Below, in pieces: positions 4,982-16,893 of a DNA stretch of 64,000 nucleotides. The notes beneath the pieces were generated by a model, which worked only from the letters and a program-made list of their open reading frames with translations, was not told the DNA's origin and did no database searches. The stretch spans positions 1,888,001-1,952,000 of the forward strand of contig OY760175.1 of the NCBI GenBank assembly GCA_963663165.1, given 5' to 3'. The position numbers and the translations under genes are program-made. The DNA comes from an uncultured Desulfospira sp. GTDB lineage: Bacteria; Desulfobacterota; Desulfobacteria; Desulfobacterales; Desulfobacteraceae. Numbering within the stretch: the first letter of the stretch is position 1; each line of letters starts with the position of its first letter.

Positions 4982-5434
4982 ATATTCAAAAATGATGTCT
5001 GTTTCAGGAATTTTTTTTTACCTTGGCTTTGGCGACCTTCTTCAGTTTAAAACCCAATTTATTCATTATGGTGGATAGAGTCCGTACTGTTGGCATATTC
5101 TCAGGGTCATATCCCATGTCGTCTGCTAAGATTCAAAAAATGTAACGCGGATACGCCAAATCAGCTACAAAATAATATAACGGGAAGATATCCCGCCGCT
5201 TTACCCCGCCAATAAAATATATAAACCTTACCTCGCTTACCCCGCAGTTATCCCGCCGCGAATTTTTTCGAAAAAAGCTTTGCCAATCTATTTGGAAGAA
5301 GTCAATACTTCCTTGATAAAAAAGGCTCGAAGCTGCAACTTCGAGCCTTCAATGTAGACATCCGAGTAGGTTACGGAAGCCACACCACCGTTTTTATCTA
5401 ACCACGGCTTCCGTAATTTAGCAAGAGCGGAAGC

Positions 5435-5824
5435 ATGGAAATCGTTTTATTAAAACGTATCGAGTGTAAGCGATGTTTCCAAATTTTCTATGTGTGCCGC
5501 AGTTGCTGGCGGGGGCAGGCATATTGCTGTCAAGAATGCCGCCAGGAGGCCCGCAAAGAAGCGCACTGCAAAGCTCAAAAAAAATATCGACAAACGCCAA
5601 AAGGTAAAGAGGCCCACCGTCGTCAAGAAAAAAACAAAAGATTACGTCAAGCTGAAAAAACCATGGATGATACATCTACTATACCCGGTGTAACCCATGA
5701 TAGTGTCTCTCCCAAGCCATTATGTTCCGGCCCCTGTTGCCATTTTTGTGGGAAAATTGGTTGGGTTGTAGAGCATTTTCCCTGGCGCGGATATGCAAAA
5801 CGACCTGTAAGGGCCAATCAATGA
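5435..5824 (+). CDS. Cys-rich zinc-binding basic protein (transposon accessory)
   Basis: CKRC..VCRSC..YCCQEC, a basic helix, and a C-terminal CHFC. Confidence 0.75.
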   Translation: MEIVLLKRIECKRCFQIFYVCRSCWRGQAYCCQECRQEARKEAHCKAQKKYRQTPKGKEAHRRQEKNKRLRQAEKTMDDTSTIPGVTHDSVSPKPLCSGPCCHFCGKIGWVVEHFPWRGYAKRPVRANQ

Positions 5825-5833
5825 AACATCTTA

Positions 5834-6238
5834 ATGGAGGATAAGACAATGAAAAAAGAAATATTGACAGGCCATTGCAACAAAATGAAAAACAGATTTT
5901 CATCCCGGGAGCTATTTAAACTGAGAAACGATATCCCTGTGGATATGCTGATCCGTGACCATTTACAGATTCCATCCAAAATCAGGGATGGTGTTTTCCG
6001 GTTTTTATGTCCTTTGTGCAATGAGTTTCAAACCGCTGTAAATCCAGCCACCAATCTGGCCAGGTGTTTTCGGTGTGAGAAGAATTTCAACACCATTGAT
6101 CTGGTCATGGAAGTCAAGGGATATGGATTCAGGGACAGTGTATTTTTTTTGAAAGAACTGGATGCGGTCTCCTATGTCCCGGCAAATGTGTTGACGTCTC
6201 TTGCCACCGGTATCGGTCAACCCTGGCCTGGGAAGTAA
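5834..6238 (+). CDS. CHC2-type (DnaG primase-like) zinc-finger protein
   Basis: FLCPLCNE...ARCFRCEKNFNTIDLVMEVKGYGFRDSV resembles the primase zinc-binding domain. Confidence 0.78.
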   Translation: MEDKTMKKEILTGHCNKMKNRFSSRELFKLRNDIPVDMLIRDHLQIPSKIRDGVFRFLCPLCNEFQTAVNPATNLARCFRCEKNFNTIDLVMEVKGYGFRDSVFFLKELDAVSYVPANVLTSLATGIGQPWPGK

Positions 6239-6240
6239 AG

Positions 6241-6795
6241 ATGAAACGGCTGCTTCAACTGGAGACCCTTATTGCCCGTAATCAGGAGAGTTTCTATAAG
6301 ATCGGTCAGGCGTTAAAAGAAATCCGTGACAGCCGCCTGTACAAACTGGCCCTGTTTGAGACATTTGAAGCATATACCAGGGAACGGTGGGATATGGGCA
6401 AGTCCCATGCATACCGCCTGATCAAATCTTATGAAGTGATCTATAATTTGTCCCCAATTGGGGACAAAACACCTGCCAATGAATCCCAGGTCCGGCCTCT
6501 TGCTCAATTGGACCCCCTGGACCAGCGCAACACCTGGAAGGCAATCATAGACAACGGTATTGAGTTAACCGCACGGAACATCAAAAAATTTGTAGAGGCC
6601 CAAAAAATACCCCCGGAGAACAAACCGGATTTGGCGGAACGGATTTCGGCTGAATACATGGCAGCCGTACATGCAATGATTGAACAGGTGCGGGTGGCCC
6701 AGCATGATCATTGGCAGCAAACGTCCCGGCAGGCTGCATTGTTGTGGCACAGGGTGATCCGCGAAAAAATTTTATCAAAAGGGGCAAGACAATGA
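6241..6795 (+). CDS. Helical putative DNA-binding protein (transposon accessory)
   Basis: IGQALKEIRDSRLY...TFEAYTRERWDMGKSHAYRLI...PANESQVRPL, a motif common in mobile elements; abuts neighbouring ORFs. Confidence 0.7.
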   Translation: MKRLLQLETLIARNQESFYKIGQALKEIRDSRLYKLALFETFEAYTRERWDMGKSHAYRLIKSYEVIYNLSPIGDKTPANESQVRPLAQLDPLDQRNTWKAIIDNGIELTARNIKKFVEAQKIPPENKPDLAERISAEYMAAVHAMIEQVRVAQHDHWQQTSRQAALLWHRVIREKILSKGARQ

Positions 6796-8459
6796 AGAAC
6801 CTGAGCCTTGATGACCGTTTTTATTTGCTGCTCCATAAAAAAATCATGAATAAAACCGGATCAGCCAAAAGAAGGTCCAAAAAATATTACAAAGACCAGT
6901 ACAGGAAAACCGGCATTATCCCGACGCCCCTTCTACTGGTTGAAAAAGGGATTATGGACGGCCGCAAATGCAGCGGCCGGCCCCGGTCCATAGATGAACA
7001 AACCAAAAGGCGGTTTATCGAAATGGTCAAGGCCTCCTGTGACCCGTCATCCCAGGGGTTTATTTTTATTACCCGAAAAGCCAGAACCATTAAAAATTAC
7101 CACTATTGGCTTGAAAGAGAATTGGGAAAAACCATCAGCCTTCCGGCACTCAGGCGATGTGCCCAAAGGGAAGGCCTTAAATTTTACCTGGAAAAAGAAG
7201 ATTTTGAAGAAAATGCCCCGGTGAAAAACGCATTCAAGCCTGTTCCGGTGTTTGGCCTGATACAGGTAGACGGTTGCAACTTTCGATATTTAAAAATCAA
7301 AAATGAGGCTGGCCACTGGCAAAAACCCCAAGTCATTGAAACGTTTGATACCGGTTCCCGGTACATGTTTGAACTTGATGCCTATTTCGATGAAAGCAGC
7401 TTAAGCTCAGTGGATTTGTTTAACCGGTTTTTGCTTTCCACCCCATTTCCCCAGAAGAAAGTCCGGTTCAGGCCGGATAACGCCACAGGATTTGTAAATC
7501 TCAAAAGAGTCATCAACGCCTTGAATATAAAACATTCCGTTCCCGGAGGATTTTATCTGGCGCCGGATTTTTCAAGGGTAAGTGCCCCCAGGGACAAGGC
7601 CCATCTTGAGTCCTCCCATCGCAGTCTTCATAATTTTGAAATCCGAATCATCAAGGCGTTTGAAGACAGGATTGTAAAGACCGTTCCAGGGGTTATCTTC
7701 AATAATAAGAAAAAAGAAAAAATCACTGTGACACTCCTTGATATTACACTCCGGGATTTAAGACACAGCCCCCTGATAAAAGAATACCGCCACGAACATA
7801 ACCACACCAAACATTATTTTAGCGAAAATGGAAAGATCAGTGCATGGGTTCCGGCACAAAAGCTGGAAGAATTTTTATCAAGGCAAGCCGATATCCTTAC
7901 CTTTTCACCGGATGAGGTGCAGGAATATATGAAGTATGGCTACAGGAAAATAAAAGCCACTGTATCTAACAAAAGAACCATTCGCCATGACAACCGGATC
8001 TATTGTGTAACCAGTGGTACAGACCGGTTCAGCAGGCATAAAAGTACACCGGTGCAAATATCAGTATATAAGGGCAAGCTGTTTATTTTTGAACGGGGGG
8101 AAGACGGCATACTATTGGGCGAAGCCCTTGCCACAAAGCCGTTTGACAAACCACCTGACCCAAAATCTGTACCAGTGGCCCCGGATGAACTCGACATGAT
8201 GATCATTTTTCTGGAAAAGCACAACATGGCCGTCGACCGGCGAGTCTTAATTGAAGCTTATCATAGCGGCCTCACTCTGGCCCGGGCTCAACAAGTGCTT
8301 CATCATAATCAATCCAGGTACAAGAATTATATGAAAAAGATGCGGCAACCTGAAACACAGAAAAAGCAGGCGGTATTCAATGCCTTTATGCTTGACTGCC
8401 GGAAATTGATCAATACAAACCATGTGGCCACGTATGCATCCTGCGGAGATTTAACATGA
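6792..8459 (+). CDS. DDE (rve-type) transposase/integrase
   Basis: Candidate triad IQVDG / RPDNA / KAHLESSH; ATG at 6792 overlaps the upstream stop (ATGA). Confidence 0.85.
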   Translation: MKNLSLDDRFYLLLHKKIMNKTGSAKRRSKKYYKDQYRKTGIIPTPLLLVEKGIMDGRKCSGRPRSIDEQTKRRFIEMVKASCDPSSQGFIFITRKARTIKNYHYWLERELGKTISLPALRRCAQREGLKFYLEKEDFEENAPVKNAFKPVPVFGLIQVDGCNFRYLKIKNEAGHWQKPQVIETFDTGSRYMFELDAYFDESSLSSVDLFNRFLLSTPFPQKKVRFRPDNATGFVNLKRVINALNIKHSVPGGFYLAPDFSRVSAPRDKAHLESSHRSLHNFEIRIIKAFEDRIVKTVPGVIFNNKKKEKITVTLLDITLRDLRHSPLIKEYRHEHNHTKHYFSENGKISAWVPAQKLEEFLSRQADILTFSPDEVQEYMKYGYRKIKATVSNKRTIRHDNRIYCVTSGTDRFSRHKSTPVQISVYKGKLFIFERGEDGILLGEALATKPFDKPPDPKSVPVAPDELDMMIIFLEKHNMAVDRRVLIEAYHSGLTLARAQQVLHHNQSRYKNYMKKMRQPETQKKQAVFNAFMLDCRKLINTNHVATYASCGDLT

Positions 8460-9118
8460 AGGCAGATTTTATCAGTGACAAACGAAGGGTATCATACCTG
8501 AGCGCCACTTATAGCCGGATCTACCGGGGCCGGAGCGTACTCATTGAGGGAGATTTTGGAGCGGGAAAAACCAGGTTTTTAAAACTGCTTCGTCCCAAAA
8601 AACTTCATGCCGTATGGGTAGAGTCCCTGTTCAACATACACGAAACCCTGGCATCCATACTCAAAGAATTGAACTATGACACCACAGCCACATATCGCAG
8701 AACTCCCCAGTACCTGAAAATGATCTGCAACCTGTCCAACTGCTTTATTATTATTGATGAGGCCAATGATCTGGATACCAGGGTCTGGCCATATCTTAAG
8801 CGGATCATTGATGCCGGTGTTCCTATTGTTTTTGCAGGGCTTCCAAAGGTCAGGACCTATTTGATTCGCAATCACCCTGATATCCTCAGCCGGTTGAAAA
8901 CCCTGATTTTATATCCCATAGAGGTTGAGGGCTTTATCGAACAATATAAAGATATCCAGCAGGAAGCCGTTGAGCAAATTTATATGGCGGTCAAAGGCGA
9001 CATGCGTAAATTTAAAGAAATCTGTACTGACTGCCGGGACAAGGCAAAGGAATTGAACCACCAATTTGTTGACATTAATCTTGCCCTGGAGTTTATATCT
9101 GACCTTCCTCCCCAGTAA
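8456..9118 (+). CDS. AAA+ ATPase (transposition helper, IstB/TniB/MuB-like)
   Basis: Walker A GDFGAGKT and Walker B IIIDEA; overlaps the transposase stop. Confidence 0.88.
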   Translation: MKADFISDKRRVSYLSATYSRIYRGRSVLIEGDFGAGKTRFLKLLRPKKLHAVWVESLFNIHETLASILKELNYDTTATYRRTPQYLKMICNLSNCFIIIDEANDLDTRVWPYLKRIIDAGVPIVFAGLPKVRTYLIRNHPDILSRLKTLILYPIEVEGFIEQYKDIQQEAVEQIYMAVKGDMRKFKEICTDCRDKAKELNHQFVDINLALEFISDLPPQ

Positions 9119-9930
9119 TCCCTGAAAAGTAGATCCGTAAAAACAGGCCACTTCTGATTTAACCGGAAGATGGCCTGTTTATATTTTGACCTTAATTGAT
9201 TAACGCAATTTTTCGCCTGGATATACCTGTGAAAATCAGGGAACCACAGATTGTTTTTGAATCTTTTTTGAACCGTTACATTAATTTGCAACTTTCAATA
9301 TTTTTGACTGCCAACCTAACCTACTAAATTTATATGAAAAACCATTTCTTTTTTGAAATAATGAACGAAAAAAAATCCGTTACATTATTTGAATGTGAGC
9401 AGTCGTCAACTAATCGACGGAATACTTCATTCGCAGATATTGGGGAATATAAATTCTGGGTACGGAATGTAGGATCAGTCTGACATATAGGGTTTACAAT
9501 ACGAGTTATGTCCTCTTTTAAATTCGGAAAATGTTCTAAACACGATTTCCGGCCTCGTCCGGAAAAATTATCAACACAGGTAACTCCGCTTTCTATTTCC
9601 CGTCGCCCTTTGATTATTGTTTTCCGATCCCAACCCAGTTCTCTTTCAGCCTTTAGTTGTCCGCCGTGCCCCATAAGGGAGACAACGCGTGCCATGAATT
9701 GGCGCCGTTCATGGCCTTTTAATTTGCTTCGAGTGGTATTCAGAAAATCCTTTAGTGGTGGCGTTAATTCCGATATAGTTTTGGGTAAATTGTGCTTAGA
9801 ATGATCAAACATGGTCCTCCTGTATTTTTTATGTAATCTTCCATGTTGACCATAAACTATCGATTCCATGTTGTCTATAGAAATCAGAATTCAGACTATG
9901 GAATTGTGGATATTAATTTTTCTGAGGCCC

Positions 9931-10716: not shown

Positions 10717-11166
10717 TTATAATCCCCAAACCTCTTCCATATCGTCTATTGATAAATCATCATATCTGTTCATTGTTGCAAGCCATTCAGGCATATCCTC
10801 TTTGACACGTATTTTGAGATCATCGAGATCTTCTTTATCAATTTCACCGAGTTCGAAAAGAAACTGATAAAATTTTTTCAAGCTAGTAGCATTGCTTTTG
10901 ATTTGAGCAGGGCTTGACCATGATGCTTTTTTGATAAACCAGTACCCTAAAAACATCCCAATGTCTGATGAACCATCTTTTGCTTCAACCGCATCTTCAT
11001 AAAGAAGAAAGTCATTTATATAAAAATCGACATTTTCAATATGCTTTCTTATCGTCTGAACTTTAAGTCCTGAACTTTCCAGCCAATTTTCAAAATCTTT
11101 CAGCAGCTTTTTATTTTTTTTCCGAATTTCATTACATTCGGTTTCATATTTTTCATAATTATCCAT
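10717..11166 (-). CDS. Stand-alone tyrosine-recombinase core-binding (SAM-like) domain protein, copy 1
   Basis: LLKDFENWLESSGLKVQTIRKHIENVDFY...SLKKFYQFL; no catalytic RHRY domain. Confidence 0.7.
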   Translation of the reverse strand: MDNYEKYETECNEIRKKNKKLLKDFENWLESSGLKVQTIRKHIENVDFYINDFLLYEDAVEAKDGSSDIGMFLGYWFIKKASWSSPAQIKSNATSLKKFYQFLFELGEIDKEDLDDLKIRVKEDMPEWLATMNRYDDLSIDDMEEVWGL

Positions 11167-12088: not shown

Positions 12089-12538
12089 TTATAATCCCCA
12101 AACCTCTTCCATATCGTCTATTGATAAATCATCATATCTGTTCATTGTTGCAAGCCATTCAGGCATATCCTCTTTGACACGTATTTTGAGATCATCGAGA
12201 TCTTCTTTATCAATTTCACCGAGTTCGAAAAGAAACTGATAAAATTTTTTCAAGCTAGTAGCATTGCTTTTGATTTGAGCAGGGCTTGACCATGATGCTT
12301 TTTTGATAAACCAGTACCCTAAAAACATCCCAATGTCTGATGAACCATCTTTTGCTTCAACCGCATCTTCATAAAGAAGAAAGTCATTTATATAAAAATC
12401 GACATTTTCAATATGTTTTCTTATCGTCTGAACTTTAAGTCCTGAACTTTCCAGCCAATTTTCAAAATCTTTCAGCAGCTTTTTATTTTTTTTCCGAATT
12501 TCATTACATTCGGTTTCATATTTTTCATAATTATCCAT
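12089..12538 (-). CDS. Recombinase core-binding-like protein, copy 2 (identical protein)
   Basis: Same 149-aa sequence as 10717-11166. Confidence 0.7.
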   Translation of the reverse strand: MDNYEKYETECNEIRKKNKKLLKDFENWLESSGLKVQTIRKHIENVDFYINDFLLYEDAVEAKDGSSDIGMFLGYWFIKKASWSSPAQIKSNATSLKKFYQFLFELGEIDKEDLDDLKIRVKEDMPEWLATMNRYDDLSIDDMEEVWGL

Positions 12539-12565
12539 TTCATTCCTATTCGGTGGTGGTTTCAC

Positions 12566-16104: not shown

Positions 16105-16893
16105 TTAACTGATAATTTTTTCAGCTTTTTGTAATGTCCTGATCAGATACTGTGTTTTTTTTCGTTCATCCGCATGATTAATCCAATCCTGCCTTTCATT
16201 GATAATGCGATTGTAAATTTCCATTCGTGAAAAACCTCTTCTATAGAGGGCCAGAGCATATGCAAAATCAGTGGCAGATTCGTCACCCTTATCATAGAGG
16301 GAGCGGGAAATATTACCGTTATGGCACACTCCCCCCCGGGGTTGATGGGAAAAGACTTCTTGAGGTCGGGAGGATAATTCTATTTCAGGGACAATAGCCT
16401 GGCATTTCCAGTCCACCCATAATAGCTTTGCCAAAGGGTATTGTCCTGAAGGCGTTCTATGTTTTGCTTTTCTGTTCCTGAACCCGGGGCATCTGCCCCA
16501 CCTGTTTTTCGGGTCGGCGCCGGGATCACTGTGCATGTTTTCCAACCAATACTTTTTTTCGGGAAGGCTTAACGGACGGTCACTGTGAATCCAAATTTGA
16601 TAATTGCCGGGAGATGTTTCCATAACCATCCTGCCTGGTTTAAAGCGGTTTGATATGGATTGATGATGCCGGATAAGCAGGTCAATGTTTAAATCGTCGG
16701 CAAGAAAATAATAAGGCTCAATAACAGGATCAGGTCTGATCAGGATGTGCCTTCCTCCGGCATTTTCAGCTTTAAGATAAGGGATGTTTTTACAAGAGGG
16801 GAGAACGGGCCACCGGCCCTTAATTTCATCAAGAACTGCCAGGCTGAAGCGGTGCTTAAAATAATTGCCGATTTTCCATAGTATTTTTTCCAT
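16105..16893 (-). CDS. RepB'-like (AEP superfamily) DNA primase-domain protein
   Basis: YFLADDL, VMETSPGNYQIWI, SDPGA...WGRCPGFRNRK, and C-terminal DESATDFAYALALYRRG helices. Confidence 0.8.
   Translation of the reverse strand: MEKILWKIGNYFKHRFSLAVLDEIKGRWPVLPSCKNIPYLKAENAGGRHILIRPDPVIEPYYFLADDLNIDLLIRHHQSISNRFKPGRMVMETSPGNYQIWIHSDRPLSLPEKKYWLENMHSDPGADPKNRWGRCPGFRNRKAKHRTPSGQYPLAKLLWVDWKCQAIVPEIELSSRPQEVFSHQPRGGVCHNGNISRSLYDKGDESATDFAYALALYRRGFSRMEIYNRIINERQDWINHADERKKTQYLIRTLQKAEKIIS

Follow-up and report, generated by a model that had tools for sequence, protein, structure and literature searches.

A compact DDE transposon, probably related to Mu-like phages, with a swappable helper cassette in an uncultured Desulfospira

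Detailed knowledge of how a transposition intermediate passes to the host's replication machinery comes mainly from phage Mu in Escherichia coli. Mu-like phages combine a DDE transposase and a MuB-like ATPase with TG..CA ends that hold several sites each, and the sites at one end are separated by a long gap, as at the left end of Mu. Non-phage elements of the Tn552 and Tn5053/Tn7 (TnsB-TnsC) group also pair a Mu-type transposase with an ATPase, Tn552 making 6-bp duplications, and IS21 elements unite insertion sequence (IS) size, TG..CA ends, repeated end sites, and a transposase gene overlapping the ATPase gene. Mu itself duplicates 5 bp, and for its replication a primosome is described as having to be loaded on the lagging-strand template of the strand-transfer fork (PMC3325207). 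Here, we analyze a transposon of 4,278 bp, with a 6-bp duplication, at positions 5124-9401 of a 64,000-nucleotide stretch (the window) of contig OY760175.1 (positions 1,888,001 to 1,952,000; assembly GCA_963663165.1) from an uncultured Desulfospira sp. In the reading toward which we lean, it is a Mu-phage-related, IS-sized transposon that likely moves by Mu-type replicative transposition and in which the product of open reading frame (ORF) B, a small zinc-binding protein, is predicted to bind an array of TAYCCCGC repeats inside the left end (Table 1).

Kinship with Mu-like phages and other transposons

The element works like the Mu/Tn552 group and, by membership tests, is not a member of IS21, Tn7, or Tn552. 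With Mu-like phages it shares the transposase-ATPase pair, the form of the ends, and a ParB-like gene before A; the phages compared are Mu, the viral contigs L140-L147, and the roseophages vB_ThpS-P1 and vB_PeaS-P1, for which roseophages the order ParB-A-B is tabulated (PMC5488378). It differs from them in that its five ORFs fill the 4,278 bp with no repressor, Ner, lysis, packaging, or virion genes, in that its transposase (ORF D) lacks the N-terminal helix-turn-helix (HTH) extension of most phage relatives, and in a leader cassette common to IS21 and RIT elements. With the Tn552 and Tn5053/Tn7 group it shares a non-phage existence, and TnsB is the top fold match of its transposase, but it contains no resolvase, TniQ, or TnsA gene and carries three small helper genes instead: the element holds no recombinase ORF of the Tn552 resolvase type, and none of the five ORFs matches a Tn7-like TniQ/TnsD selector. 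Among 46 non-redundant family sites with both ends, a perfect 6-bp duplication is found at 26, the 5-bp duplication typical of Tn7 at one, and neither at 19 (some of which are short collapsed contigs or have flanks swapped between copies). The features of IS21 named above are all shared, as are the helper genes of local IS21s, but the ATPase (ORF E) lacks an IstB profile, the transposase resembles IstA at an E value of 0.03, through a shared fold only, and its nearest relatives are phage A proteins.

An original prediction made from the sequence alone had called the element IS21/Mu-like. The Mu-like part stands, given the phage A relatives, the match of ORF E to phrog_296 (E value of 1e-11), and its 45% identity to the B protein of phage L140, whereas the IS21-like part fails: ORF E gives no match to IstB PF01695 at an E value of 0.1 (a genuine IstB scores 7e-49) and lies nearer to MuB (profile E value of 7e-5) than to IstB (3e-3), and the transposase matches no IS21 model in NCBIfam or Pfam. 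Residues D160, D229, and E273 of ORF D are invariant in a 40-sequence alignment reaching down to 23% identity, and Foldseek ranks TnsB (5e-8) before IstA (9e-6) and MuA (7e-4).

The transposase family is apparently unnamed, with the A proteins of Mu-like phages as its distant members. No Pfam or NCBIfam model matches ORF D above cut-off (the best, NCBIfam IS630, scores 17 bits against a cut-off of 100, in the HTH region only), nor is there a match among solved-structure sequences, 72,556 plasmids, or cultured phages; ORFs C and E have none in cultured phages either. The family thus escapes standard annotation, even though this genome has 12 matches and another one 19. Homologs number 683 of 8,000 scored candidates, and the transposase profile matched 180 proteins among 1.84 billion representatives; a genome scan yielded 74 loci, mostly titled Desulfobacterota, with matches in 12 of 61 related genomes, and a phylum-wide deep-alignment search (three candidates scored per genome) matched 3 of 401. 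We found no description of the transposase family or the cassette in a literature search that lay outside subscription journals and ISfinder, and the available portion of Faure et al. (PMC10293859) mentions neither CHC2 nor ParB.

Relatives of ORF D, at 33 to 38% identity, are encoded by eight viral contigs, and many of the distant relatives have an extra N-terminal HTH and a long linker. In a neighbor scan of 60 of 165 ORFs (L143 left out), all seven contigs encode either a repressor or proteins of the terminase, portal, head, or late-activator kinds, and six have a phrog_296 B gene. In phage L140, a homolog of ORF C (E value of 2e-13 over 170 columns) lies two genes ahead of A, and the transposase matches phrog_310 at 5e-7. 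Locus L029, from the same order, has an intermediate layout, with a divergent HTH gene, a small gene labeled Ner-like by position, a short A of 552 amino acids (aa), and a B gene. A mixture-model tree nests a 25-row IS clade (SH-aLRT of 100) among phage A proteins, and the family links transposable phages and insertion sequences at 33 to 45% identity. As a separate observation, L140-L147 and L029 form an uncultured Mu-like phage group whose transposase barely matches PHROGs and has no cultured-phage match. At four loci (L290:175-4060, L244, L243, and L141), the transposase is preceded by ORF C, by an unknown protein of 159 aa, and, just upstream, by an ATPase of the DnaC/IstB type.

The element begins with TG at 5124 and ends with CA at 9400-9401. 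Its terminal repeats, predicted as imperfect and 24 bp long, match at 21 of 24 positions, and the predicted GTCGTC duplication is indeed present on either side. The element splits an ISAzo13-type transposase gene (PF07592); elsewhere in the genome, the host IS is found 20 times with a single GTCGTC. This gives the duplication a length of 6 bp, because these empty sites hold one GTCGTC and contigs from three of four public runs join 5117 directly to 9402; readings of 5 or 7 bp are ruled out by the empty sites. Six copies exist in the genome, with 0 mismatches among them and a perfect 6-bp duplication at four, and in public runs X2 and X8 the ends are joined to flanks outside these six, which therefore represent more insertions in other samples; the transposon has recently spread. 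Two sister elements, together about five copies in the same genome, have 77 to 78% DNA identity to it. Among the 26 duplicated family targets, position 4 is G in 21 and position 3 is C in 13, a weak NNCGNN preference.

The helper cassette and its repeat array

All five ORFs of the original prediction exist (encoding a Cys-rich protein, a CHC2-like zinc finger, a helical DNA-binding-like protein, the DDE transposase, and the ATPase), and across homologous elements the slots of the three accessory genes are kept, although the contents of two are swappable. At 42 non-redundant genome loci with enough upstream DNA, ORF C is present in 41, and the leaders read beta-CHC2-C (25 loci), alpha-CHC2-C (7), alpha-winged helix-C (4), DUF6431-CHC2-C (1), or are truncated (5); among 48 metagenome loci, DUF6431-like-CHC2-C is commonest (29). 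Slot 1, held here by ORF A (type alpha, no family match), contains type beta or DUF6431-like proteins in relatives, and in some of them slot 2 encodes a winged helix that matches HTH_36 and, more weakly, resembles RepL and DnaB-type domains (the latter a lead only). On a 33-element tree, slot 1 changes seven times and slot 2 four times.

The same genes lead other elements of this genome, which we take to be IS21 and RIT from gene layout and familiar motifs, with IstB checked against Pfam at one locus: an IS21 in five copies with alpha, winged helix, and ParB-like genes before istA and istB, and two three-recombinase RIT-type elements in seven and four copies, one with alpha and winged helix and one with Cys-rich and CHC2 genes (L013-L017 and G000:C1:2833456, 8490). 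A further winged-helix RIT-type element has four copies. Of 251 genomes from the order, 35 encode homologs of CHC2 and 57 encode homologs of the winged helix; no CHC2 homolog was confirmed in viral contigs.

ORF B had been described as a primase-type zinc finger, and the CHC2 domain is there, under the same profile as the zinc-binding domain of DnaG (PF01807); it is not a primase, but a zinc-binding domain only. Unlike DnaG, ORF B stands alone with no catalytic domain and has four Cys in place of Cys-His-Cys-Cys, and the DnaG domain of the host is 29% identical over 49 residues (E value of 0.19).

The predicted CCCGC-core repeats were recovered at the left end, with cores at 5192, 5205, 5241, and 5252, and follow the consensus TAYCCCGC (of 131 cores, 113 have the T and 125 the A). 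Bases 25 to 200 hold two or more cores in 39 of 40 CHC2 family elements and no core in any of 6 winged-helix elements, four further candidate ends with no slot-2 call being left out (Fisher p of 7e-7, among kin that are not independent); in the winged-helix elements, the top strand is rich in T instead (0.30-0.50 versus 0.14-0.36). This pairing holds though the variable slot 1 lies between. Genome-wide, 15 of the 19 clusters of at least two repeats are the ends of all 15 CHC2 elements, 4 of them RITs. In an order-wide sample of 30 CHC2 and 30 winged-helix loci, counted where at least 800 bp upstream were available, arrays precede 8 of 8 family members (some overlapping the earlier counts), 2 of 18 other CHC2 loci (both RIT-type), and 0 of 23 winged-helix loci. 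At the 16 remaining CHC2 loci, CHC2 is mostly the last gene; of six testable istB-CHC2 (IS21) loci, three carry four inverted cores no farther than about 120 bp downstream, at the right end, and one lone CHC2 remnant has three inverted cores downstream. Where there is an array, CCCGC therefore points inward from whichever end is closer and lies on the non-transferred strand. The pairing of this small protein with its short cis repeat extends over three unrelated classes of element and lends itself to direct binding and deletion tests.

The structural model of ORF C is similar to DNA-binding domains from Spo0J, ParB, Noc, and KorB and to the N-domain of Raf1, with Z scores of 9.0 for Spo0J (root mean square deviation of 2.8, 104 residues aligned), 8.9 for ParB, 10.8 for the Raf1 N-domain, and 7.6 for KorB, all below the bar of about 13 for helical proteins; ParB-family chains make up much of both structure-match lists. 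The N-terminal CTP-binding (CTPase) domain is absent from ORF C, whose model is all-helical and whose residue 1 aligns to Spo0J residue 103. Homologs occur at 80 viral loci, with a large ORF close downstream at 50, and 34 of the 45 scanned encode a Mu-type transposase.

The window contains another transposon, T2, in the same host IS family, with DUF6431-like, DDE transposase, ExeA-type ATPase, and RepB primase genes. The two share a replication-type gene inside a DDE-plus-ATPase element (the RepB primase of T2 is confirmed) but are unrelated in that the T2 transposase belongs to a different family; T2 has a full primase at its 3' end, while here a zinc finger lies at the 5' end. Seven ExeA-type elements elsewhere (L339, L340, L342, L347, L348, L350, and L354) have a terminal CHC2 followed by a short hairpin instead of an array, and this CHC2 sits where T2 (16105-16893) has its RepB primase.

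A proposed mechanism and its rivals

In the proposed pathway, the transposase would bind two sites per end, join the CA-3' ends to the target, and leave the 6-bp stagger. The core AA(A/T)ANTGTAAC occurs twice per end in family elements, usually 35 bp apart at the left and about 103 bp at the right; the second transposase-type site per end is absent from the original description. The MuB-like ATPase would, as in Mu, capture target DNA with the weak NNCGNN preference, and host replication would probably copy the branched intermediate. We consider it quite probable that ORF B binds the TAYCCCGC array; that it also helps primase or helicase to start there on the lagging-strand template is a more doubtful step, which we put forward because the array lies on the non-transferred strand, the would-be lagging-strand template. 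DnaG zinc domains read single-stranded templates, and together with the strand of the array this makes us favor ORF B as a single-strand binder. ORF C is likely to be a DNA-binding protein that serves in regulation or as a cofactor of the transpososome, and ORF A with its hairpin would form a separate, likely regulatory, module. The two roles first suggested for the accessory proteins fare differently: recruitment of the replication machinery would be in keeping with the genes of slot 2 and its surroundings and with the strand on which the array lies, whereas target choice shows no sign of site specificity, just the NNCGNN bias. As a lead only, the Aquifex primase is reported to prefer CCC, GCC, and CGC (PMC2532735), which may not be the preference of the host primase.

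The main rival, unlikely in our estimation, has ORF B binding the array as a double-stranded operator, as a repressor or architectural factor with no priming role. It draws on the left-end array lying ahead of the entire operon and also ahead of a weak promoter-like site (5280-5309), as well as on the TA kept before CCCGC, which makes the motif 8 bp, longer than a primase triplet; but such promoter-like matches are at chance level (2 found, 1.5 expected), and in three IS21s the array lies downstream of all genes, at the right end. Copy-out/paste-in movement through an end-joined circle like that of IS21, with the helper module priming replication of the circle, is improbable. The module is common to IS21s, and in this genome only 2 bp separate the right end of a sister element from where one of the six copies begins at its left end (G000:C1:6324044-6332628; L002 and L008), which resembles the circle product of IS21; the ATPase, however, is MuB-like and not IstB, and the 2-bp spacer is identical to the final two bases in the opposite flank of that copy, as an adjacent deletion would leave it. 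The junction is the sole one of its kind and joins two different elements; no end-to-end junction was found in the public runs, which are assembled contigs, and circles may still form. Least plausible, and very improbable, is that the leader genes are passengers exchanged among the mobile elements of sulfate reducers, with a hitchhiking array and only transposase and ATPase mattering: the seven and four slot changes would suit it, as would the ExeA-type elements holding CHC2 with no downstream array, but ORF C is nearly always present, and the array tracks slot 2 past the intervening variable gene and shifts to the other end with CHC2.

Several results, the junction just described among them, weigh against the replicative, Mu-related reading that we favor. 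The ORF D model is weak (predicted local distance difference test [pLDDT] score of 65), and its profile match to MuA is not significant (E value of 0.31). A smaller LG+G4 tree roots among the IS, where long branches meet, and does not reject phage monophyly (p-AU of 0.50), so that the phage-to-IS direction changed between the two trees; a single IS clade that leaves out L243 and L244 is rejected in the same run (p of 4e-5). No cointegrate was seen. Six-base flanks are exchanged between same-genome copies (L112/L113/L114 and L130/L132), an ambiguous sign of inversion or replicative rearrangement, as such swaps (L112/L113 and L130/L132) also arise by homologous recombination. ORF B, at 134 aa, is a zinc finger with no catalytic TOPRIM domain. 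Within the family, the link between array and CHC2 comes down to three independent pairs (sign test p of 0.25); L098 has CHC2 with just one repeat, and a downstream array was found neither in three of the six testable IS21s with terminal CHC2 nor in any of six testable ExeA-type elements with terminal CHC2.

A wider joint reading, tentative and as a whole rather unlikely, would see here a plug-in replication-start module swapped among Mu-phage-related DDE, IS21, and RIT systems of sulfate reducers. Its parts would be either the primase zinc finger with the TAYCCCGC array or an initiator-like winged helix with a T-rich strand, its role would be to mark the lagging-strand template inside one end for copying of the intermediate by host primase/helicase, and the 4.3-kb element itself would be what is left of a Mu-like phage after reduction to an insertion sequence.

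Leader hairpins and surroundings

The hairpin predicted at about 5322-5349 is real in its pairing, with arms at 5322-5332 and 5339-5349, and region 5310-5445 folds with a z score of -4.8. Its 11 pairs are kept in 18 leaders (from this family, IS21, and RIT), 99% paired with no G-U, and 3 of the 11 show two-sided changes; because of this pattern, it would fit a terminator or a DNA palindrome. No Rfam match was found. The hairpin was not found beside alpha genes in reverse orientation; an opposite-strand, divergent slot-1 alpha gene with no hairpin occurs at seven loci (L241, L258, L264, L277, L293, L298, and L363). Pairing of the second stem with the ribosome-binding region of ORF A was dropped as an idea, 429 of 500 shuffles pairing equally well.

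Table 1. Coordinates of features of the transposon, as window positions
Feature	Position	Strand	Remarks
Left GTCGTC target duplication	5118..5123	+	Within ISAzo13-type transposase gene
Left terminal repeat, putative transposase site L1	5124..5147	+	
Putative transposase site L2	5165..5182	+	35 bp after L1; spacing kept in most relatives
Array of four TAYCCCGC repeats, predicted ORF B binding site	5189..5259	+	Co-occurs with CHC2 gene
11-bp perfect hairpin/palindrome	5322..5349	.	Accompanies slot-1 type alpha, in IS21 and RIT elements too
Second, less conserved stem upstream of ORF A	5371..5416	.	Pairing in 67% of cells (18 leaders)
ORF A, slot 1, Cys-rich type alpha	5435..5824	+	129 aa; 8 Cys invariant across 12 sequences
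ORF B, slot 2, stand-alone DnaG-type zinc-binding domain	5834..6238	+	134 aa; CPxC..CFxC; PF01807 CHC2 E 8e-7
ORF C, predicted ParB/Spo0J/KorB-type DNA-binding domain	6241..6795	+	184 aa; model pLDDT 82
ORF D, DDE transposase	6792..8459	+	555 aa; D160, D229, E273; MuA/TnsB-like fold
ORF E, MuB-like AAA+ ATPase	8456..9118	+	220 aa; AAA_22 E 4e-7
Putative transposase site R2	9274..9291	-	About 103 bp inside R1
Right terminal repeat, putative transposase site R1	9378..9401	-	
Right copy of GTCGTC target duplication	9402..9407	+	

Around the element, window positions 1-36000 form a dense cluster of nested, broken IS copies (ISAzo13-type and others), in which a 149-aa ORF is repeated at 10717-11166 and 12089-12565; beyond about 36 kb, the G+C content of the window goes up.

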